The position numbers and the translations under genes are program-made. A stretch of DNA of 64,000 nucleotides. Origin: Ignavibacteriota bacterium. Lineage in GTDB: Bacteria; Bacteroidota; Ignavibacteria; UBA10030. The notes beneath the pieces are model-generated. The model saw nothing but the letters and a program-made list of their open reading frames with translations. It did no database searches and was not told the DNA's origin. This document shows positions 3,106 to 30,162 of this stretch, piece after piece; the stretch's first letter is position 1, and each line of letters opens with the position of its first letter. The stretch spans positions 9,165 to 73,164 of the forward strand of contig PMZI01000016.1 of assembly GCA_003170475.1 (NCBI GenBank), written 5' to 3'.

Positions 3106-3587
3106 TCACTTGAACTTGATACCTCTGAGGCCCGCGCTTTTCAGGTAGTTCATCAATCCGCCGATCATTTTCCCGACTTCTGCAGCATGATTGTAAGCCG
3201 TGGTAAACACGTCCAGACTCAAATAGCCCTGATGGAGTCCGACGTAAAGATGACTTATGACTTCGGAAACCGATCCTTTCGCAATTGAAAGGAACTGGAT
3301 AAACTCCCTTGTTCCTCCTCTTCCGGCCCTTCGGCAATGTTCGCCATCACTGAAACTGCAGCACGCCGGAATTGGTCTCTCAGGGGAAAATCCCAGCTGA
3401 AATTGCCTTGCCGAGAAACACGACAGATTTCAGAAACCAACGACCGTGCCTTCGCCAAGCGTCGATTGCCTCCAGCTCCGTAAACGTGGGCAAGAAAGTC
3501 TCCAGCTTGTAGTCCGCGAAAAGGAATTCTCTTCTCAAAACTACAAACTTCTGAACTCAGAACCTCTGATCTACCTCGAACTGCCAA
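3106..3587 (-). pseudogene. four-helix-bundle protein (23S rRNA intervening-sequence protein family, TIGR02436-like) interrupted by a -1 frameshift near 3325-3335
   Basis: Frame a (ORF 3255..3587) gives ...FPLRDQFRRAAVSVMANIAEG then nonsense (PEEEEQGS...). Frame b, continuing from the same point, gives AGRGGTREFIQFLSIAKGSVSEVISHLYVGLHQGYLSLDVFTTAYNHAAEVGKMIGGLMNYLKSAGLRGIKFK*. Together these are the canonical '..RRAaVSIpaNIAEG.gR.s.kEFiqFL.IA.GS..E' family signature. The shift sits in a G/C run (gaagggccgg). The 5' end overlaps the PIG-L gene start by 17 nt. Confidence 0.55.
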
Positions 3588-6057
3588 GCGAAATCAAGTT
3601 CACAAACAGCCTGTACGCGCCGGGAACTCCCGCGGGAAGTTGCCGGAAGAACGCGTATCCCGTAAACACATACGTCCCCTTACCGTACGAAGCGACAAGC
3701 AATCCCCCCTCTCTCGATGGCTCACCGGGATCGTTGCTCGCAAGAATGGCAGTATAGTGCGAGTCCCACTTGTCAGCGAAGTAAAGTCCGCGTTCCTGAA
3801 CCCAGCCATCAAAATCTGCCTGAGTAATCTTGTTAGGAGTGTTCAGCACCGCATGAGTCGGGGCAAGAAATCGTACCGGCGCTTCCTCCACCGACACACG
3901 ATCACTCGTGATATTGAATGGATAGGGCCCGAGGTTTTCGGTCTCAGCTCTCCGAGCAGTCATGTACTGAACGATATACGTTCCCCCTTTTTCCACGAAC
4001 TCCATCAGCTTGCGCTGATTTGCTTTCAGGACAGGTCGAGTGTTGTAGGCCCTCACACCGGCGATGATGACGTCGTACTGGTTCAGTCCGCCGTTCTTGA
4101 GATCCTCGTCTGCGATCAACCCAACAGCGTAACCCAGCTGCCTCAGTACCGTAGGAATGTCGTCACCGGCCCCCATGATGTAGCCGATTCGGCGATCAGT
4201 GATCTTCAAGTCGAGACGGAGCAGGCGTCCCTCCGCCTCCGGAAAAACCGTCTGAGGAGGAATATGCGGATAGCGTATCGTGAGCATGTCCTGGTGCATA
4301 CGGACATCCCCGACAGTCGCCTCAGCACCGAACGACCCCGATGCTGACCCATTTGTGGGCTCAACCTGGAAAACGAGCGACAAGTTTTCATCCTTCTGTT
4401 TTAGATCAAACGGATAGGACGGAGGAGTCACCTTCCACCCCTCGGGAGTTCGAAGCGCGACTGTTCCGGAAGTCATGGAAATGTTATTGCGAAGGTTCAC
4501 CTGTATTGACCGCTGCTTGTGGTCCGGAAATACGTATGTTTTCTCCGGCAAATTCAAAGTGACAGGCGGAATGATCGCAAACGGCCGGTACTGTTCGCCT
4601 TCAACGGGATCAACACCTCGGAAACGCACCGGGACCTCAAACGTCATCGCTCCGTCATTCGAGACGAGCGTCATGCTCATCGTCAGCGCGGGGACATTTT
4701 CCGGCTGACCGACGAGTTCCTGACGAGGGATTCTGTATGCGCCGAGTTCCGATGGTTCGACAAGCCAATACGGTTGAGAATACTGCAAATCCTTTGGCAG
4801 TTTCACAGCAAATGTGAATTGAACCTGCTGATTGCTCTGCAACTGTGCAGTCATGGTCGTATCAAACCGACCGAACGGGCCCACAATCTTCGTAAGCCGA
4901 AACGGATACGATGATCGATTCAGCGCTGATCCGGTGATCTTGATTTCTCCGCCAGGCACCCCAAAGTTGTCGGAAGAAAGAGCGTCAAGCCACAGTCCGC
5001 CGCACAGCTTGATGACTTCAGCAAGTTCACGCTTCTTGACCTGGATCCATGGATCTCTTTTCAACTTCTCAATTTCCGCATACGCATGCAGAAGTGCGGG
5101 AAGAGATTTCGCAGGATTCTCGTCATCAAACGTACGGTAAGCCTCCTCCAGGAGTCTTGCGACGCCTTCGGCTCCGGCGACGCGTGACCATGTCGTGCTG
5201 ACTCCATCGAAGAGATCAGCACTTGCCATATCGCCGGCGATATGTTGAAAGTAGTTGACGAACTCACCTCTGTTCTGACCCGCTCCAAACCCCTGACTCT
5301 TGTGCATGCTTCGACTGCGGCCGGCAATTTCTGTGAACGACTCTCCCAACACCGGGCTATACACTCCGAGATCGATGGTCAGCGAACTGTCCGGTTTTGC
5401 CGGTCGGTCGCTTTGCTGAAAACGAAACACGTTCCACAGAAGTCTTTTCGGTTTCCAGACCTGAACGAATTTCAGCTGTTCAGGAAAGCGTAGCGGATCG
5501 CCGGCGGCGGTGTACGCTTCCTCGGCGAGAGCGGCAGAACTCGTGTGATTCCCATGGCCACCCAGCGTGGGTGTGAATCTCGTGACAACAACATCCGGAC
5601 GGTACGAGCGGATAACCCACACCACGTCCGAGAGTGTTCTTTCCTTCCCCCAAATTCTCATCGTCTCATCGAGTGTTTTCGAATAGCCGAAGTCGATTGC
5701 TCGCGTGAAGTATTGCTCAGCGCCATCGATACGGCGCGCGGCAAGGAGTTCCTGAGTTCGTATGATTCCCATCAGGTCGCCCTGTTCGGCACCGAGGAGA
5801 TTTTGCCCTCCCTCACCCCGCGTCACCGCCAGGTAGGCAGAGCGCATCAATCGACCCTTCGCCATATAAGCAAGGAATGCCGTGTTCTCGTCGTCCGGAT
5901 GAGCGGCGATGAAGAGCACCGAGCCAAGCACGTTGAGCTTCTTGATCGCCAGCCGGAGTTCTGCCGCATCAAGTGATCTGGGAGATTGGGGTTGTGCAAT
6001 AAGGGAAATCGTGAGTGAAGAGATCAGCAGAACAAGAGCAAGTAGCTTGCGCGCCAT
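3571..6057 (-). CDS. secreted PIG-L/LmbE-family deacetylase fused to a large C-terminal ThuA/class-I-glutamine-amidotransferase-like domain (828 aa)
   Basis: Signal peptide MARKLLALVLLISSLTISLIAQ. The 'VLFIAAHPDDENTAFLAYMAKG' HPDDE zinc-deacetylase motif follows. The C-terminal domain is about 550 aa. Confidence 0.6.
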   Translation of the reverse strand: MARKLLALVLLISSLTISLIAQPQSPRSLDAAELRLAIKKLNVLGSVLFIAAHPDDENTAFLAYMAKGRLMRSAYLAVTRGEGGQNLLGAEQGDLMGIIRTQELLAARRIDGAEQYFTRAIDFGYSKTLDETMRIWGKERTLSDVVWVIRSYRPDVVVTRFTPTLGGHGNHTSSAALAEEAYTAAGDPLRFPEQLKFVQVWKPKRLLWNVFRFQQSDRPAKPDSSLTIDLGVYSPVLGESFTEIAGRSRSMHKSQGFGAGQNRGEFVNYFQHIAGDMASADLFDGVSTTWSRVAGAEGVARLLEEAYRTFDDENPAKSLPALLHAYAEIEKLKRDPWIQVKKRELAEVIKLCGGLWLDALSSDNFGVPGGEIKITGSALNRSSYPFRLTKIVGPFGRFDTTMTAQLQSNQQVQFTFAVKLPKDLQYSQPYWLVEPSELGAYRIPRQELVGQPENVPALTMSMTLVSNDGAMTFEVPVRFRGVDPVEGEQYRPFAIIPPVTLNLPEKTYVFPDHKQRSIQVNLRNNISMTSGTVALRTPEGWKVTPPSYPFDLKQKDENLSLVFQVEPTNGSASGSFGAEATVGDVRMHQDMLTIRYPHIPPQTVFPEAEGRLLRLDLKITDRRIGYIMGAGDDIPTVLRQLGYAVGLIADEDLKNGGLNQYDVIIAGVRAYNTRPVLKANQRKLMEFVEKGGTYIVQYMTARRAETENLGPYPFNITSDRVSVEEAPVRFLAPTHAVLNTPNKITQADFDGWVQERGLYFADKWDSHYTAILASNDPGEPSREGGLLVASYGKGTYVFTGYAFFRQLPAGVPGAYRLFVNLISLGSSR

Positions 6058-6307
6058 CGCGGATCCTTTATGCCAATGGGAGGTTGGGAAGAGCAGAATC
6101 AGAGTGATTTCCGGCCTTTTCTGCGCGGAAATATACCATTCCCACCCAGAAGCCGCAAGGAGAAAGGGACCAGCAGCGAAAAGATCACCCGGTTCGGCAG
6201 CCTTTGATAAACAAAGGTCGTCTCATGAATGTTCCTGCGAACGCCACATCGAGCGGATCCACCGGCTTGCTCATCACCGTCTGCGAACCGTCGCACCTTT
6301 TCGATCA

Positions 6308-6349
6308 GTGTAGCGTTCTGCAATCTCCAGACATCTAACTGTTGAGCAG
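6308..6349 (+). promoter_or_regulatory. copy A of a conserved composite element GTGTAGCG-N16-CATCTAACTgTTGAGCAG, ~110 nt upstream of the 6461 gene
   Basis: Near-identical to 27658-27699 (8/8 + 18/19 identities, identical 16-nt spacer length; an extra CCTTT(T)CG block lies just upstream in both). See findings. Confidence 0.45.
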
Positions 6350-6460
6350 TGTGGACATCAACCGGTGATGTCACCCACCACATCGTTACCTCCGGCACGC
6401 CGCTCATGTTTACGACTCTGTAACCATCTGGCAATCACCAGGCATTCCAGGGAGGAATCC

Positions 6461-7783
6461 ATGGCAGCGTTCAAGTTCCGCGTACCGTCGTTATTCCAGC
6501 TTGTCGTTCTCTCCATTGTGTGCTCCTTTCCTCTGTTCTCACAGGCTCCTGCGGACACGGTAGACATCATGCAGAAATCCGCCGTGAAGATTTACGTCGA
6601 CTGCAGCCTCTGCGATCAGGACTATTTCCGGACAGAGCTGACATATGTCAATTTTGTTCGCGACCGGAAGCAGGCACACGTGCATATTATGATCACGCAG
6701 ATGTACACCGGGAGCGGCGGAACAGAGTACACAATGACATTCATCGGACAACTGGAATTTGAGGGAGTTAACGACACGCTGAAGTACAATGCCAATAAGA
6801 CCGACACTCAGGATATGACGCGGAAAGGGATGCTGAAAGTTCTGAAGACGGGACTCGTCCGCTACGTCATCCACACACCACTCGGCGAGTTCTTCAACAT
6901 TACGTACAACAAACCAACGGCTGCGACCAAAGTTGCAGACCGGTGGGACTACTGGGTCATCAATGCGAACCTCAGCAGCTGGTTCAACGGCGAATCTCAA
7001 TATAAATCGTCGCAACTCTGGGGAGGGCTGACTGCCAGCCGGGTAACGGACGACTGGAAATTCCGGTTTTCAGTGAACTTCAGCTACAACGACAACGCGT
7101 ACGATGTTCAAACGGATGACACAACGACGGTGACCAGCAGATCGATCAGCCGAAGCCAGTGGTTCAACGGCTTCATTGTCAAGAGCATCAACGACCATTG
7201 GTCCGTCGGACTCTTCACCTACCTGAGTTCTGCGACCTACAGCAATATCGATTTCTCTTCCCGCGTGGAACCCGGAATCGAATACAATATTTTCCCGTTC
7301 AGCGAATCAACCCATCGTCAGCTTCGCATCGGCTACCAGATCGGCGTCGGTTCGAGACGTTATATCGACACTACCATCTACTTCAAGAAATCAGAGGTCC
7401 TCTATTCCCATTCACTTTCCGCCACTCTCTCTCTCCAGCAGCCGTGGGGATCAACATCGATCACACTTGCCGAATCACAGTTCCTTCACGACTTCTCAAA
7501 AAATAGTTTCAATGCATCCGGGAGCATGTCGATCCGAGTGTTCGAAGGCCTTTCTGTCACCCTCTATGGCGGATACACCGCAGTCCATGACCAGCTTTCC
7601 CTCGCCAAGAGTTCGCTGACAGAAGCGGAGATTTATCAGCAGCGACGTGAGTTGGCGAAAAGCTATTCCTACTACGGTTCGTTCGGTTTCAGCTACTCAA
7701 TTGGCTCGATTTACAACAATATTGTCAATTCCAGATTTGGCAATCAGGGCGGTGGCGGAACCACCATAATCACGAGCGATTGA
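6461..7783 (+). CDS. secreted hypothetical protein, probable outer-membrane beta-barrel (alternating amphipathic beta-strand pattern, aromatic-rich)
   Basis: Strong RBS GGGAGG 8 nt before the ATG at 6461 (MAAFKFRVPSLFQLVVLSIVCSFPLFSQA signal peptide). The ORF-track start at 6365 is an N-terminal over-extension. A terminator lies downstream. Confidence 0.5.
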   Translation: MAAFKFRVPSLFQLVVLSIVCSFPLFSQAPADTVDIMQKSAVKIYVDCSLCDQDYFRTELTYVNFVRDRKQAHVHIMITQMYTGSGGTEYTMTFIGQLEFEGVNDTLKYNANKTDTQDMTRKGMLKVLKTGLVRYVIHTPLGEFFNITYNKPTAATKVADRWDYWVINANLSSWFNGESQYKSSQLWGGLTASRVTDDWKFRFSVNFSYNDNAYDVQTDDTTTVTSRSISRSQWFNGFIVKSINDHWSVGLFTYLSSATYSNIDFSSRVEPGIEYNIFPFSESTHRQLRIGYQIGVGSRRYIDTTIYFKKSEVLYSHSLSATLSLQQPWGSTSITLAESQFLHDFSKNSFNASGSMSIRVFEGLSVTLYGGYTAVHDQLSLAKSSLTEAEIYQQRRELAKSYSYYGSFGFSYSIGSIYNNIVNSRFGNQGGGGTTIITSD

Positions 7784-7808: not shown

Positions 7809-7838
7809 GAGCCGCCCCCCCGTGGCGGCTTTTTTTTG
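7809..7838 (+). terminator. rho-independent terminator (gccgcc-ccccgtg-ggcggc + T9)
   Basis: GC stem 7811-7816/7824-7829 followed by TTTTTTTTT. Confidence 0.7.
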
Positions 7839-7970
7839 TTCTTCCGATATGTGCGTTCCGCCTTCACTTTTTTGAATTCATTTCCTTATCTTAGACAGCG
7901 CTTCAAGGCGCCTTGCACACGGGCTCTTTCTCGAGCCACTTCCCAACAGGACATCAAAACATTTCTTGCC

Positions 7971-8474
7971 ATGAGAGTATCGATCACATTCGTCTTCCAT
8001 CTGCTGAGCATCGGGACATTAATGACCACCCTCGTCGCCGGCTTCATCCTCGACAGAAAGATCAGGAGAGAACCCGACATTCATTTGAAGATCTACACAG
8101 CGGGACTCTCAAAGTCCATCGGGCTTCTGTCGCCTGTCGCGGCGATACTCCTCTTACTTACCGGCATTGCGAACATTCACAATCGCTTCTTGGGATATCC
8201 TTCTGAGTGGTATTCCGAAGGCTGGCTTGTTGCGAAAATCATTTTGTACGCCGTGATGGTTTTCAACGGAATGTTTTACGGCCCCGGTCTGATGCGCGGC
8301 CGCCTGAAAGTCCTTCGATCGCAGGCCGAGCAATCCGCTCCCACAAATGCCGACAGTCAGATCCGATCCTACAACACTCAGATCACACTCTTCTACGCAG
8401 TCCAGATCATGCTCTTTCTTTTGATTGTTTACATTTCAGTGTTTGGCACCGCAAAACACCCTGGAGCAATTTAG
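7971..8474 (+). CDS. small integral membrane protein (4 predicted TM helices), unknown function
   Basis: Start chosen at MRVSITFVFHLLSIG..., because the ORF-track start at 7836 lies inside the upstream terminator T-run. Hydrophobic segments alternate with short loops. Confidence 0.4.
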   Translation: MRVSITFVFHLLSIGTLMTTLVAGFILDRKIRREPDIHLKIYTAGLSKSIGLLSPVAAILLLLTGIANIHNRFLGYPSEWYSEGWLVAKIILYAVMVFNGMFYGPGLMRGRLKVLRSQAEQSAPTNADSQIRSYNTQITLFYAVQIMLFLLIVYISVFGTAKHPGAI

Positions 8475-8486
8475 AAAGTCCGTGTT

Positions 8487-9731
8487 ATGAAGCTCGCCTA
8501 TGCTTTTTTTGTTCTCTGTATCGTTCTGACCCTTGCCGCGTGTCAGCAGGCACCGCCTCCCCAGCAGGCAATGTGGAAAGGCACTCTCGAACTCCCCGGT
8601 CAGAAACAGCTTCCCTTCCTCGTCTTTCTCGACCTCAAACAACCAGCGCCATCAGGATATTTCCTGAACGGCTCCGAGCAAACTCCGATTCCTGAGGTTG
8701 AGTTGCACGGAGACTCGTTGACCTTTGTCTTTTCAGAGTATGGGGCTGCTATGCGAGGAATCTGGAAACGTGGGAAGCTCGCGGGAGAATTCCTTCGCTT
8801 CCGAAAAGACACGATGGTCAACAAGTTTGAGGCGGTGCCGGTGACTTCAACCGAACAAACTCCGCAGTCAAAGATGAGTACCGAAGTCCCCCTCGTGGGA
8901 AAATTCCAGGCGTACTTCAAGCAGAAAGAAGGGATCGACAGCTCGTCGCAGGCAACATTCTGGGCTCATGGAGATTCGGTGTATGGAACCATCGTGGAGT
9001 CATCCGGGGACATCGGACTGATGGCCGGAAAGCAAACCGGCAACTCGGTTCTCCTCACGCGATTCACAGGTTGGCAAGGTCAGATGATTGAGCTCACGCG
9101 CGTACAGAATGCGTGGAGCGGAACCTTGTACTATCGCATCCCGCCACCCGTCTCTTTCACTCTTGAGCCCCGTGCGACACTGGTTGAAGAGCTCGCTGAG
9201 GCAAACAGACCTTCGCTGAAAAATGTCCGAAAACCCTTCGCGTTCTCCGGAACGACGGTCATGGGTGACACGGTGAACAATCTTTCTCCGCAGTTCAAGG
9301 GAAAGGTTCTCCTTCTCGACATCATGGGAACATGGTGCCACAATTGCATGGACGCTGCGCCATTACTCCAGAAGCTCTCTTCGGAGTTTGGGAGCCAGGG
9401 GCTCGAAGTCGTTGGTCTTTCCTTCGAACTGAGTGACGATCCCACCACAGCACGGAGAAACCTGCTACTCTTCGAAGAACGCTACGGGATTACATTCCCG
9501 GTGTTGTTCTGCGGCTCAACAAGCCCCGCGAACATCGAAGCCAGAGTGAAATCGCAGATCAACAATTTCCCCGGATATCCAACGACACTTTTCATTGATC
9601 GCAACGGCTCGGTCTCTACGATCCATGGCGGCTTCAATGGACCGGGTACAGGCGAGTATTTCCAGGCCCAGATCAACCGTTACTATGATCTTGTAAGGAC
9701 CTTGCTCAAAAGTAACAAGTCGAAACGCTGA
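8487..9731 (+). CDS. lipoprotein with C-terminal TlpA/ResA-like thioredoxin-fold thiol:disulfide oxidoreductase domain
   Basis: Lipobox MKLAYAFFVLCIVLTLAAC. The C-terminal 'GKVLLLDIMGTWCHNCMDAAPLL' carries a WCxxC active site, followed by the '...GYPTTLFIDRNGSV' thioredoxin-fold end. Confidence 0.65.
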   Translation: MKLAYAFFVLCIVLTLAACQQAPPPQQAMWKGTLELPGQKQLPFLVFLDLKQPAPSGYFLNGSEQTPIPEVELHGDSLTFVFSEYGAAMRGIWKRGKLAGEFLRFRKDTMVNKFEAVPVTSTEQTPQSKMSTEVPLVGKFQAYFKQKEGIDSSSQATFWAHGDSVYGTIVESSGDIGLMAGKQTGNSVLLTRFTGWQGQMIELTRVQNAWSGTLYYRIPPPVSFTLEPRATLVEELAEANRPSLKNVRKPFAFSGTTVMGDTVNNLSPQFKGKVLLLDIMGTWCHNCMDAAPLLQKLSSEFGSQGLEVVGLSFELSDDPTTARRNLLLFEERYGITFPVLFCGSTSPANIEARVKSQINNFPGYPTTLFIDRNGSVSTIHGGFNGPGTGEYFQAQINRYYDLVRTLLKSNKSKR

Positions 9732-26639: not shown

Positions 26640-27392
26640 ATGAGAACGATGAAACGATATCCTGCGTTTTGCGCGGCCTGGCTGCTCGCAATTCTGCCGG
26701 CACTCTCTTTGGCCCAGGAATACCCCCAGCGCGATTCTTCGATTGTTTTCACACCTTCCAGTCCCAACTTAATACAGAAGACGACCTATGAGCCTTATCG
26801 CAGCGCTTGGGGTGTGGACCTTATGCTGTCGAATAACGGTTTCGGGGCAGGAGCGTTCTTCCGGCATGAGTTCTCGGATGTTCTTGCGGGATTCGTTCAG
26901 CTGGCAATTTCTGATGTCAAAGATGACTCTGAAGTCGATTATGTGGATCCCTACACCGGGACCTCGTACACGCCCGGAAAAATTAACCGGCTTATGCTTT
27001 TTCCGCTGACGCTGGGAATGCAGTATCGACTTTTCAGGGAGACTATTGCTGACAATTTCCGCCCCTACCTCAGCGCCGGCCTGGGACCTTCCTTCATCAT
27101 GGTTGCGCCGTATGCGACTCCGACAACGGTGAACGTCGATGGCGGTGGCACGTTTACGTACTTTGAGCAGATCGATTTCTTTGACAGCCTCAAAAAGGCT
27201 CAGATGAAAATGACGCTTGGAGCTTACGTGGGTGCGGGTGCGTACTTCGGCGTGAATGCAGGCACACTGACAGGCATCAGCTTCCGTTACTATTTCATTC
27301 CGTATGCTCCGGGCCTGGAGAGCCTCCAAGATGTCAAGATCACACGGTTCGGAGGTTTCTACATCACGTTGAATTTTGGCTCTCTCATCTAA
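26640..27392 (+). CDS. small outer-membrane beta-barrel protein (OmpW/porin-like, 8-10 strands)
   Basis: Signal peptide, then alternating hydrophobic beta-strand pattern ending ...FYITLNFGSLI. A terminator lies immediately downstream. Confidence 0.5.
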   Translation: MRTMKRYPAFCAAWLLAILPALSLAQEYPQRDSSIVFTPSSPNLIQKTTYEPYRSAWGVDLMLSNNGFGAGAFFRHEFSDVLAGFVQLAISDVKDDSEVDYVDPYTGTSYTPGKINRLMLFPLTLGMQYRLFRETIADNFRPYLSAGLGPSFIMVAPYATPTTVNVDGGGTFTYFEQIDFFDSLKKAQMKMTLGAYVGAGAYFGVNAGTLTGISFRYYFIPYAPGLESLQDVKITRFGGFYITLNFGSLI

Positions 27393-27410
27393 TTTGATCT
27401 TCACTAAAAC

Positions 27411-27440
27411 AAAAAAGCGCACCCTCGGTGCGCTTTTTTG
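27411..27440 (+). terminator. rho-independent terminator (A6-gcgcacc-ctc-ggtgcgc-T6)
   Basis: Perfect 7-bp GC stem 27417-27423/27427-27433 flanked by an A-run and a T-run. Confidence 0.75.
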
Positions 27441-27657
27441 CTATCTGGCATACAGTTCCAAAACAATTGAAGCACTTCGAAACCCATAGAGCCTCCCCTT
27501 CGCTCTATGGACCTGCAAAGTGCTTCACAATTTCGTCTTTAAGGTCGCACGCTGTCCAATATCTTGGTGTGATTCGAGTCACTTCTGCTCCGAATGGGCA
27601 ACCGCATGCAACCATGACCCTCCGCTCCAAAAACCAAACCACAAAGCCTTTCGCAGG

Positions 27658-27699
27658 GTGTAGCGGTTTGCATCCCTCGGGCATCTAACTCTTGAGCAG
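27658..27699 (+). promoter_or_regulatory. copy B of the conserved element GTGTAGCG-N16-CATCTAACTcTTGAGCAG, ending 14 nt before the ECF sigma ATG
   Basis: See copy A (6308-6349). Its position fits an autoregulated ECF promoter or operator. Confidence 0.45.
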
Positions 27700-27713: not shown

Positions 27714-28241
27714 ATGCAGGACGACAATCACTGGGTCACTCGAGCCAAAAGCGGGAATCAGAGAGCATTCAAGGTCCTTTACGACGAGAATGTCACTCCC
27801 CTTTACCGTTTTCTAAAGCAGTTTTCGCGGGGCGACGAAGAGGTCCACGAGTGGGTTCAACGGGCATTCATCAAAGCGTTTGAACACATCGATTCGTTCG
27901 ATCATCGTTCGAAGTTTTCGTCGTGGCTCTTTAGGCTCGCGATCAATGAAATGAAAATGGACCGGCGCCGCGAGCACATCGTCCGATTCGAATCTCTCGA
28001 AGCTCTCGGTGATGTCGCTGATTCGGAAGAGCCCTCGTTCGAGTGGCACCACACGATGAAAAGCTGGATGGGAGAGCTCGACGATACAAAGCGGATGGTG
28101 TTCATCCTCTATGAAGTCGAAGGCTATTCACACGCAGAGATCGCCTCTGTGATTGGAATCGCAGAGAGTTCTTCGAGAACGCTCTTGACCCGGGCAAAGC
28201 GGATTCTTCAGGACCATTGGAACAAGGAGATGAAACAATGA
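27714..28241 (+). CDS. RNA polymerase sigma-70 factor, ECF subfamily
   Basis: 175 aa. Region 2 'AFKVLYDENVTPLYRFLKQFSRGDEEVHEWVQRAFIKAFEHIDSF'. Region 4 'MVFILYEVEGYSHAEIASVIGIAESSSRTLLTRAKRIL'. Confidence 0.85.
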   Translation: MQDDNHWVTRAKSGNQRAFKVLYDENVTPLYRFLKQFSRGDEEVHEWVQRAFIKAFEHIDSFDHRSKFSSWLFRLAINEMKMDRRREHIVRFESLEALGDVADSEEPSFEWHHTMKSWMGELDDTKRMVFILYEVEGYSHAEIASVIGIAESSSRTLLTRAKRILQDHWNKEMKQ

Positions 28242-28747
28242 CAAAGCCAGAGGATTTCTACACTTCTGACGATTCGCCGGGAAGACGGGCCAGGTCCGGA
28301 ATGTGGCGTGGTATTCAACGGCACACAGCTCCTCTGCAAGCAAACAAATGGTTCGTTAGCGATCGAAGGAGCTTCGTCCTCGGAATGGCCACAACGGTTG
28401 TCATCGGACTCGCTCTCGTCGGAACATGGACTTTGACCCGACAAGCGTTTGAAAATGCGCAACCACAGCCTCTGCGGTTGGAACGAGCGTATATCTCCGC
28501 GATCAACGAATTCGAGCATGTATTGCCGTTCGTCACCGCGAAGGTGTCTCAGACCCCCCAAAGCAAAGAAGAGCTGACTCAGCGAGCCCAGCAATTGTCC
28601 CTCATCGATGCGGCGATCAGCCAGCTGCGTCTTCAAACAAACGTGATCGACCTTTCGCCTCTCATACGAGAACGACTGCGCCAGCTCTACGCGATGAAAC
28701 TTCAGATTCTGCAGCAGATGATCGAAAGAGGAGAAATTGATCTATGA
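28238..28747 (+). CDS. anti-sigma factor (single-pass membrane protein)
   Basis: ATGA overlap with the sigma gene stop. It has a cytoplasmic N-terminus, one TM segment (FVLGMATTVVIGLALVGTW) and a periplasmic C-terminus. Confidence 0.6.
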   Translation: MTKPEDFYTSDDSPGRRARSGMWRGIQRHTAPLQANKWFVSDRRSFVLGMATTVVIGLALVGTWTLTRQAFENAQPQPLRLERAYISAINEFEHVLPFVTAKVSQTPQSKEELTQRAQQLSLIDAAISQLRLQTNVIDLSPLIRERLRQLYAMKLQILQQMIERGEIDL

Positions 28748-30162
28748 AGACTCTGATGGTTGCGATGATGATAGCATCGTCATCAGGATTCATCGCGGGA
28801 AATCCCGAACGAGTCCGCACTATTGAACAGCACTTCCCGACACAGGCGTCACAAAAGATCGAGTTGCATGGTTTCAGCGGATCCGAAATCAGAGTCCAGT
28901 CGTGGGACAAGAATGAAATCTCTGTGAAGCTGAATATCACGTTTTCCTCATCGTATCCGGAGGATGAGCAGCGTTACCTCGACGAAATCGCCCTCAAAGA
29001 AGACAAGAACTCCGATCGATACAGCCTCACTCTCGAGGAACCCAAGATGATGTCGCGGAGCCACTTGTCATTGTGGTCTTGGGTGACGTCCGTCTTTAGA
29101 GGCACGGTCACCAGAAAGGTCATTGAAGGTGAGATCTTTGTGCCACGTTCAAATGCAATTCTTGCCGGCATAAAATATGGTTCGGTCTCGCTGGACGGGA
29201 TGAGCGGGCAAGTAACCGTTCAAGGGACCAGCAATTCGGTCACACTCAAGAACTGTGCATCGGTCTCGGAGGTTGCCAATGACTACGGCAGAACCACCAT
29301 AGAACGGTGCGGGGGTAATCTCCAGCTCTCGTGCAAAAGTGGAACGATCAACATTGACCAGTTCAAGGGCAAGATAACGCTCGAGGCTGATTACTCGCAG
29401 ATCCGCGTGCAGGATGTCACGCAATCGCTCTCGATCTATTCCGCGAGCAGCACGATGACCGTTGAGAGGATCGGCGGAGACGCGACCATACACTCGAACT
29501 ATTCGCAGCTCACGGTGAACAACGTTCTCGGGTTCCTGGAAATCAAGGACAGCGGAGGCAGGATTCGTGTGAAGACCGCCGATGGAATTCGAATCAATGG
29601 GGACTATTCCCAAATGGAGATCAGTGATGTGTCCGGGAAGGCGTCGAAGGAGATATCGATCCGCGGTCAGTCCGCACCGATTGCCATTGCCAATGCTACC
29701 GGCAATGTGAAGATCGACAACCCATACGGCATGGTCGAGCTCAGAAACATCCACGGGAATGTGGATCTGGATTCCAAGGGTGCGCGCATCATGGCGGACT
29801 ATGTTGTTGGCGATTGGCAGACCGATGCCGAATACTGCAGTTTCGAGCTTACTCGAATCAGTGCGAAGCGGGTGACGATTTCGAACAAGAGCGGCAAGAT
29901 CAATGTGGAGTTGAAGATTGTGCCCACGTTCGTCAACATCAAGAATGAATATGCTGACGTTAACCTCGATTTGCCATCCGGCTTTGGCGGTGACGTCGAC
30001 TTAAACGTCTCGTATGGCAATCTCTCTACAAACTTGCCATCGCTGAAACAAAAGAAGCTCGATAATGGATCAGGCGCGTACGGTTTGCGAACGGTAGGGA
30101 ATGAATCAGTGAAGATCGCTATCGAAACGAAATCAGCAAACATCAGCGTCATGCAGCGGTAA
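28744..30162 (+). CDS. DUF4097-family beta-strand-repeat (putative adhesin-like) protein
   Basis: 472 aa. Many imperfect ~20-aa repeats of the 'G.I.V....G.V.......G.I' type that is typical of DUF4097/DUF4098. Four-nt overlap with the anti-sigma gene. Confidence 0.6.
   Translation: MKTLMVAMMIASSSGFIAGNPERVRTIEQHFPTQASQKIELHGFSGSEIRVQSWDKNEISVKLNITFSSSYPEDEQRYLDEIALKEDKNSDRYSLTLEEPKMMSRSHLSLWSWVTSVFRGTVTRKVIEGEIFVPRSNAILAGIKYGSVSLDGMSGQVTVQGTSNSVTLKNCASVSEVANDYGRTTIERCGGNLQLSCKSGTINIDQFKGKITLEADYSQIRVQDVTQSLSIYSASSTMTVERIGGDATIHSNYSQLTVNNVLGFLEIKDSGGRIRVKTADGIRINGDYSQMEISDVSGKASKEISIRGQSAPIAIANATGNVKIDNPYGMVELRNIHGNVDLDSKGARIMADYVVGDWQTDAEYCSFELTRISAKRVTISNKSGKINVELKIVPTFVNIKNEYADVNLDLPSGFGGDVDLNVSYGNLSTNLPSLKQKKLDNGSGAYGLRTVGNESVKIAIETKSANISVMQR

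Follow-up and report, generated by a model that had tools for sequence, protein, structure and literature searches.

A 42-nt element that occurs twice in a 64,000-nt stretch of an Ignavibacteriota bacterium genome (GenBank assembly GCA_003170475.1, contig PMZI01000016.1; the whole stretch is hereafter called the window) very probably represents two promoters read by one extracytoplasmic function (ECF) sigma factor, the product of the window's gene 27714–28241. One copy of the element (copy B, 27658–27699, plus strand) lies directly before the gene encoding this sigma factor, and the other (copy A, 6308–6349, plus strand) lies some 21 kb away, before a gene encoding a predicted outer-membrane β-barrel protein (6461–7783), to which we refer as the barrel gene. 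An initial annotation, made from the letters of the window and its open reading frames, had proposed an ECF-dependent, autoregulated promoter with the barrel gene as a regulon member, and both parts of this proposal hold up: the two blocks of the element stand at a constant 16-nt distance, over a spacer free to vary, in front of 24 orthologous sigma genes, and copy A has the top matrix score when held out of training, with the motif recurring before orthologues of the barrel gene in three other lineages. We infer the dependence of the two sites on this particular sigma factor from the logic of autoregulation. So read, the predicted wiring is a well-supported case of ordinary ECF autoregulation with a regulon member.

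Searching the window with the pattern GTGTAGCG-N16-CATCTAACTNTTGAGCAG, permitting up to three mismatches, returned only two matches, copies A and B, both with no mismatches, and none was found in 100 dinucleotide shuffles of the window (chance expectation 0). The recurrence of an 8-nt block followed by a fixed 16-nt spacer is therefore real. The second block, first described as matching at 18 of 19 positions, is in fact 18 nt long with a single mismatch between the copies (17/18), and the spacer itself is identical at only 8 of 16 positions. An additional CCTTT(T)CG block had been reported about 6 nt upstream of both copies; it does exist in both (6296–6303 and 27647–27653), at a distance of 4 nt from GTGTAGCG. 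Pairwise alignment of the two regions confines their similarity to about 57 nt. The positions of the copies relative to the two start codons are also as first described, copy B ending 14 nt before the ATG at 27714 and copy A ending 111 nt (initially given as about 110) before the ATG at 6461, a start codon with the ribosome-binding site GGGAGG ahead of it.

A metagenome scan with an alignment of the sigma protein revealed 19 orthologous loci with 41–65% protein identity to the window sigma, and a scan of 596 Gb of species-representative genomes contributed five more, so that the footprint profile comprises 24 sigma-gene promoters from metagenomes and GTDB genomes. The sequence TGTAGCG-N16-CATCT precedes the sigma start codon in all 19 metagenome loci except the most distant (L023). 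Across the 24 orthologous genes the motif is located 16–60 nt upstream of the start codon, and the spacing from GCG to CATC is 16 nt in 24 of 24 sigma-gene promoters as well as in four of four barrel-gene promoters. In the 24-site profile the −35 block has the consensus TGTAGCGTTT (T-G-T-A-G-C-G-T-T-T), with 0.95–1.76 bits per position, and the −10 block has the consensus (G)CATCTAAC, that is (G)-C-A-T-C-T-a-A-C, with 1.1–1.76 bits at its best positions; the −10 of orthologues L008 and L010 reads GCATCCAAC. The 13-base stretch between the two blocks is weakly constrained (spacer information of about 0.1–0.7 bits, against 1.1–1.8 bits in the blocks). After the −10 there are three free bases and then T-G-A at 0.75–1.1 bits, at positions 34–36 counted from the first T of TGTAGCG, and upstream of the −35 an A-tract followed by a T-tract occupies positions −17 to −10 relative to TGTAGCG at 0.4–0.6 bits. 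The CCTTT(T)CG block coincides with this family-wide T-tract and is probably a proximal element of the upstream promoter (UP) type.

In the window, the promoter of the sigma operon is made up of the T-rich tract CCTTTCG (27647–27653, 4 nt upstream of the −35), the −35 block TGTAGCGGTT (27659–27668), the −10 block CATCTAAC (27682–27689) and the TGA of the predicted start region (27693–27695), all on the plus strand. If the −10 is in its usual position then TGA supplies a pyrimidine(−1)/purine(+1) start, and a +1 at G27694 would give the sigma operon a 5′ untranslated region (UTR) of 20 nt, at the lower edge of the 20–40 nt peak of ECF 5′ UTRs (PMC7776599). Leaders of 20–40 nt, pyrimidine–purine starts and UP-like A/T tracts are hallmarks of genuine ECF promoters, and UP subsites are found upstream of about 25% of them (Todor et al. 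2020, PMC7776599). The promoter formed by copy A, which we call P2, has the same layout on the plus strand: the T-rich tract CCTTTTCG (6296–6303) 4 nt upstream of the −35, the −35 block TGTAGCGTTC (6309–6318), which fits the family consensus, the −10 block CATCTAAC (6332–6339), which has the family consensus sequence, and TGA (6343–6345), where a predicted +1 at G6344 would create a 117-nt 5′ UTR. The P2 start so placed, 6 nt after TCTAA, agrees with known ECF start sites (PMC7776599).

The assignment of copy A to the same family of sites is carried by a weight matrix trained on the sigma-gene promoters only, with copy A left out, and scored on the 128 kb that make up both strands of the window. 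Held-out copy A was the top site at 33.9 bits and copy B followed at 32.5 bits; the next window site reached 10.1 bits, and the best score among 20 shuffled windows was 18.8 bits. A matrix restricted to the core returned the same two window sites. When the 596 Gb of genomes were scanned with the pattern TGTAGCGKTY-N13-CATCTAAC, 25 matches were obtained, each in a different genome. Five of these are 16–38 nt upstream of sigma orthologues, and one (L107, in the Bacteroidota metagenome-assembled genome SPRUCE 430) precedes a barrel-gene orthologue (phmmer 1e-230; 75% identity) by 217 nt. The remaining 19 either fall inside coding DNA or are followed by no consistent gene, and two of these, L109 and L112, were ambiguous on inspection. 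Two further barrel-gene orthologues have the motif at the same place, as TGTAGCATTC-N13-CATCTAAC in L113 and as TGTAGCGTTT-N13-CATCTTAC in L115/116. Among these four barrel-gene lineages (the window, L107, L113 and L115/116) mean pairwise identity is 0.90 in the −35 and 0.94 in the −10, against 0.37 in the spacer and 0.39–0.40 in the flanks, and a TT is invariant at the position of the upstream T-tract. Judged from these alignments, conservation confined to the blocks at the barrel-gene promoters is what selection on a promoter predicts.

The sigma gene (27714–28241, plus strand) encodes a protein of 175 aa with sigma-2 and sigma-4 domains only (Sigma70_r2, 2.7e-13; Sigma70_r4_2, 3.2e-12). Among the NCBIfam models only the ECF superfamily model TIGR02937 passes its cut-off and no specific sigma family was matched; the closest solved structures are those of CnrH, SigW and RpoE. 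This gene is the only sigma-70-family open reading frame in the window, which holds no other ECF sigma gene. Its stop codon overlaps (ATGA) the start codon of a translationally coupled gene (28238–28747, plus strand) for a single-pass membrane protein of 169 aa, with one transmembrane helix, about 45 cytoplasmic residues and neither cysteines nor a zinc motif. We presume this protein, from its position only, to be the anti-sigma factor; searches of Pfam, NCBIfam and the PDB with it gave no match, no anti-sigma domain was recognised in it, and it may be of an unclassified anti-sigma type. In 23 of the 24 orthologous loci its gene directly follows the sigma gene, the exception being a locus that ends about 120 nt past the sigma gene. 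The third gene of the operon (28744–30162, plus strand) overlaps the second and encodes a 472-aa DUF4097 (Toastrack, LiaG-like) protein (DUF4097, 3.1e-08; LiaG, 1.1e-06), which is kept in all orthologous loci long enough to show it. Homologues come from metagenome-assembled genomes of Ignavibacteria and Bacteroidota. The architecture and logic of autoregulated ECF sigma factors (PMC7826278; PMC7776599) match this operon. Toastrack (DUF4097, LiaG-type) modules have been linked to sigma factors and proposed to convey a membrane signal to transcription (Ravi et al. 2024, PMC11237479), and the operon resembles these modules in that a membrane-anchored Toastrack protein is encoded together with a sigma factor. 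That work describes the general association, with no promoter motif or target gene for this Ignavibacteria/Bacteroidota clade, and our literature search found no paper linking DUF4097, ECF and anti-sigma.

Taken together, copy B would drive the operon of sigma factor, membrane protein and DUF4097 protein through the 20-nt leader, resulting in positive autoregulation, and copy A, as P2, would drive the monocistronic barrel gene through the 117-nt leader, with transcription most likely starting at the G or A of TGA. The 169-aa membrane protein would keep the sigma factor inactive until an envelope signal is received, and the Toastrack protein possibly helps to sense this signal so that the sigma factor is released. 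Released sigma factor would then amplify its own operon and raise the synthesis of the barrel protein.

Well-known autoregulated group IV sigma factors include Escherichia coli RpoE, with GGAACTT-N16-TCAAA/TCTAA at rpoE P2 and in the sigma-E regulon, and Bacillus subtilis SigX, SigM and SigW, with TGTAAC, TGCAAC or TGAAAC followed by N16-17-CGxC. Like these, the sites described here are bipartite, with a −35 and a −10 held at a rigid spacing of 16–17 nt; the −35 has TGTxxC and then T-rich bases, the −10 contains TCTAA, one promoter is located directly upstream of an operon for a sigma factor and a putative anti-sigma factor, and the predicted small regulon includes an outer-membrane protein gene. 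Unlike them, the sites have AGC in place of AAC and CATC in place of CGTC, the putative anti-sigma factor lacks a recognisable anti-sigma domain, the third gene encodes a Toastrack protein, and the system is known from sequence alone. Within the family of sigma-gene promoters, G is found in the −35 core AGC in 92% and A in the −10 core CAT in 96%, and rare members possess the canonical cores (AAC in L019, CGTC in L022). The initial annotation considered the motif unlike the classic ECF consensus and the specificity of the sigma factor perhaps unusual. This is true of the letters and not of the frame, as TGTAGC-N17-CATC falls within the frame GGAAC/TGTAAC-N16/17-CGTC and within the ECF frame G-A-C/N17/C-TC, and unusual specificity was an overstatement, each half of the motif having a published precedent (PMC6180224). 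The −35 and −10 of group ECF29 (Sinorhizobium meliloti RpoE8) are GGGAAC and GCATCCAA, and the −35 of RpoE7 is TGTAAC (Lang et al. 2018, PMC6180224); the ECF29 −10 is nearly identical to the GCATC(T/C)AA found here and the RpoE7 −35 is one base from TGTAGC. In the published consensus pairs that we checked, this −35 and this −10 are not combined.

Several observations weigh against the assignment of both sites to the 27714 sigma factor. The cores depart from those of most ECF promoters (AGC as opposed to AAC, CAT as opposed to CGT). P2 is present in only about four of the nine barrel-gene lineages examined, which makes regulon membership lineage-specific, and among the genomes available it is only in the window itself that the sigma and barrel-gene promoters can be read together. 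The attribution of the motif to this sigma factor and not to a similar paralogue rests on the autoregulation rule, which some ECF groups break. Finally, the 17/18 identity of the second block runs past the −10 and into the transcript (TTGAGCAG), which exceeds the strict needs of a promoter. This start-region 8-mer of copy A is the same as that of the sigma promoter in the window and has three differences from those of the barrel-gene orthologues L107 (CGGAGTGG) and L113 (TGGAGTGG), and relatives' sigma promoters retain CTCTTGAGC(A/C)GG in the start region; the sharing may stem from gene conversion acting locally or from selection for a particular initial transcribed sequence.

The barrel gene has a second predicted ECF-type promoter, P1 (GCAGC-N17-CGTCTCA, 6197–6225, plus strand), which lies upstream of P2, is the more canonical of the two and was recognised by positional homology with orthologues. 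At the P1 position (T)GCAAC-N16/17-CGTCTAA is found in L085, L086, L107, L113, L114 and L115/116, and in L107, L113 and L115/116, GCAAC(T/C)TT-N-CGTCTAA stands about 25 nt upstream of the sigma-type motif. L085, L086 and L114 have P1 only, in L117 a related GCATC-N17-CGTCTGA is the sole site, and both promoters are missing from L087. P2 is restricted to closer relatives (at least 73% protein identity) and P1 is more widespread; going by this distribution, predicted P1 is the older, more widespread input, and the barrel gene in this sub-lineage is served by two tandem ECF inputs, the predicted P1 and P2. An exact search of the window for GCAAC-N15-18-CGTCT gave no matches, the window's P1 being a GCAGC variant, and the relaxed pattern G[CT]A[AG]C-N16/17-C[GA]TCT[ACT]A identified, over the two strands of the window, just three sites, namely P1, P2 and the sigma promoter. 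Because P1 differs in flavour from P2, more than one ECF sigma factor probably acts on the barrel gene. Two sigma factors, one for each promoter, are favoured because none of the sigma-gene promoters of the family has GCAAC.

The existence of P1 lends some weight to the explanation that best survives beside the preferred one, in which the motif is of ECF type and a paralogous ECF sigma factor encoded outside the window reads one of the sites or both, so that the barrel gene would not be under the 27714 sigma factor at all. Bacteroidota genomes encode many ECF sigma factors (PMC7826278) and cross-recognition among ECF sigma factors is documented (PMC6180224). However, the motif tracks this sigma family over 24 loci at 16–60 nt from the start codon, the standard signature of autoregulation, and copy A fits the family matrix better than does copy B. 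We consider control by a paralogue improbable.

The initial annotation offered two alternatives to a promoter, a repressor operator and a conserved RNA leader, and neither fares well. An operator for a repressor or activator common to both genes might explain why conservation runs a few bases past the −10 into the start region, and the blocks taken alone are compatible with a monomeric or heterodimeric binder. The dyad or direct-repeat symmetry expected of an operator for a dimeric factor is missing, however: neither copy contains an inverted or a direct repeat, and the two blocks are unlike each other and lie 16 nt apart over a free spacer. They do fit an ECF −35/−10 frame, with the A/T tract and the pyrimidine–purine start in the expected places, and we regard the operator as very unlikely. 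Fainter still is the prospect that the element acts as RNA, as a conserved 5′ leader or small structured motif of both transcripts. The last 6–7 bases of the shared block (GAGCAG) would indeed be transcribed and in copy B can form a 5-bp stem with GCTCA, but most of the conserved bases precede the predicted start. Folds of single sequences, computed for each copy and leader, do not outscore shuffles (z −0.96 to +0.96) and are unlike in the two copies, and RNAalifold, given 26 sites in alignment, returned no structure (0.0 kcal/mol). Nor was there an Rfam match at gathering thresholds across the whole window or at relaxed thresholds in both intergenic regions, where only terminator-like noise far below the cut-offs appeared.

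Equally hard to credit is that the sigma promoter was recently copied to give a non-functional copy A, through duplication or gene conversion over about 45 nt, or that copy A is one unit of a dispersed repeat. Its start-region 8-mer, shared with the sigma promoter and distinct from that of L107 and L113, is in keeping with recent copying, yet the spacer is only 8/16 identical and the copying is therefore not recent. Three other lineages retain the motif at the orthologous position, with conservation specific to the blocks, and there are two copies in 64 kb and at most one exact copy in any genome of the 596-Gb scan. A dispersed repeat or mobile element of the repetitive extragenic palindromic (REP) or miniature inverted-repeat transposable element (MITE) kind would be expected in many copies per genome, with terminal inverted repeats and no fixed relation to gene starts; this is contradicted by the presence of two copies only in the 64 kb, kept at orthologous positions. 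We also rejected a sigma-54 promoter, whose consensus TGGCAC-N5-TTGC has GG exactly 12 nt ahead of GC: TGCA occurs in each copy, but at that distance before it stands GT. A scan for the sigma-70 consensus found no site in either promoter region.

Returning to the two sites as promoters of the 27714 sigma factor, a bolder combined reading, which we put forward tentatively and think rather less likely to be right than wrong, is that the operon defines an ECF group not yet described, found in Ignavibacteria-like Bacteroidota and marked by a promoter code of its own, TGTAGCGTTT-N13-GCATCTAAC, and by a new type of anti-sigma factor, and that its regulon was enlarged in one sub-lineage by the birth of P2 beside the older P1. 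If this were true, the barrel gene would be a case of regulon rewiring between two ECF sigma factors caught in the act, and the identity of TTGAGCAG through the start would point to concerted evolution or to an extra constraint on the initial transcribed sequence. The more modest reading already supplies a concrete promoter code and a first predicted regulon member for an uncharacterised ECF sigma/Toastrack envelope-stress module in an uncultured lineage without genetics; wherever the clade offers a complete genome, its regulon can be listed with this motif, and the tandem P1 and P2 provide a small natural example of a gene recruited into a second ECF regulon. Otherwise the case follows and does not challenge textbook ECF sigma logic, and what is new is modest, namely a lineage-specific motif and the tandem-promoter detail.

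The barrel gene (6461–7783, plus strand) encodes a secreted protein of 440 aa with an N-terminal α/β domain and a C-terminal β-barrel. It has a signal peptide and more than 3000 homologues, and belongs to no Pfam family. Its AlphaFold model (mean predicted local distance difference test score, pLDDT, of 73.7) places β strands between residues 165 and 412, twelve long ones at 165–376 and one at 400–412, and the best Foldseek fold matches in the PDB are OmpC, OmpG, NanC and PcoB. The signal peptide and the predicted barrel with its fold matches bear out the initial description of the product as secreted and probably an outer-membrane protein. An intrinsic terminator (7809–7840, plus strand), consisting of an 8-pair stem with six G-C pairs followed by TTTTTTGTTC, comes after the gene; it is strong, and the barrel gene is therefore taken to be monocistronic.

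The N-terminal domain of the barrel protein contains an invariant CxxC (C48, C51), and past the terminator there are conserved genes for a CopD/DUF2269-like membrane protein (7836–8474) and a 414-aa AhpC/TSA-redoxin protein (8487–9731). The CxxC and these neighbours are hints of an envelope redox or copper role. Upstream, a block at 6130–6158 (AAATATACCA...GAAGCCGCAAG) is conserved in all barrel-gene orthologous regions; on the minus strand its sequence is TTGCGG-N17-TATATT, the predicted housekeeping-type promoter of the divergent gene for a PIG-L deacetylase (3571–6057).

Around copy A we noted an 8/9 direct repeat (GATCAGTGT / GAGCAGTGT, at 6303–6311 and 6344–6352, 41 nt apart) that brackets its core and was seen neither around copy B nor in orthologues. 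It is probably due to chance, and could be a trace of the promoter's origin. About 10 nt into the predicted barrel-gene leader is a perfect 7-bp hairpin, GACATCA-ACCGG-TGATGTC (6354–6372; centroid fold only), which is not conserved in L107, L113 and L115, whose leaders carry other stems. Among the genome-scan matches, the one in L109, a Sphingobacteriales metagenome-assembled genome, is exact (4952–4982) and falls in the interval between two lipoprotein paralogues, 19 nt ahead of a gene for a lipoprotein of 239 aa; it may be genuine, used by a related sigma factor in another Bacteroidota order, or due to chance.

An intergenic alignment of nine loci revealed a strongly conserved block upstream of the sigma promoter, and here the minus strand at 27457–27585 appears to carry a gene for a small RNA, so far undescribed, that diverges from the sigma operon. 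The candidate contains a hairpin (27469–27526, minus strand) of 20 pairs, in whose loop GGGGA is invariant, and a U-run comes after it. Across 14 loci, 14 of the 20 pairs show compensatory changes, and none of 500 shuffles reaches the observed values; when the structures are slid by 1–3 columns the paired fraction falls to 31–49%, and the abundance of G-U pairs points to the minus strand. The candidate has no match in Rfam, and it pairs with the sigma and barrel-gene leaders no better than shuffles do. Upstream of the hairpin there is a CRP/FNR-like palindrome, GTGAYNNGAGTCAC (27569–27582), which is present in 16 of the 24 loci. In orthologues its centre lies near −41.5 as set by a TATATT −10, an element that is degenerate in the window itself. 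Beyond the hairpin, a GC-rich hairpin between an A-run and a T-run (AAAAAAGCGCACC-CTCG-GTGCGCTTTTTT, 27407–27437) is conserved in orthologues and looks like a bidirectional terminator common to the upstream gene for a 250-aa protein (26640–27392) and the candidate small RNA.

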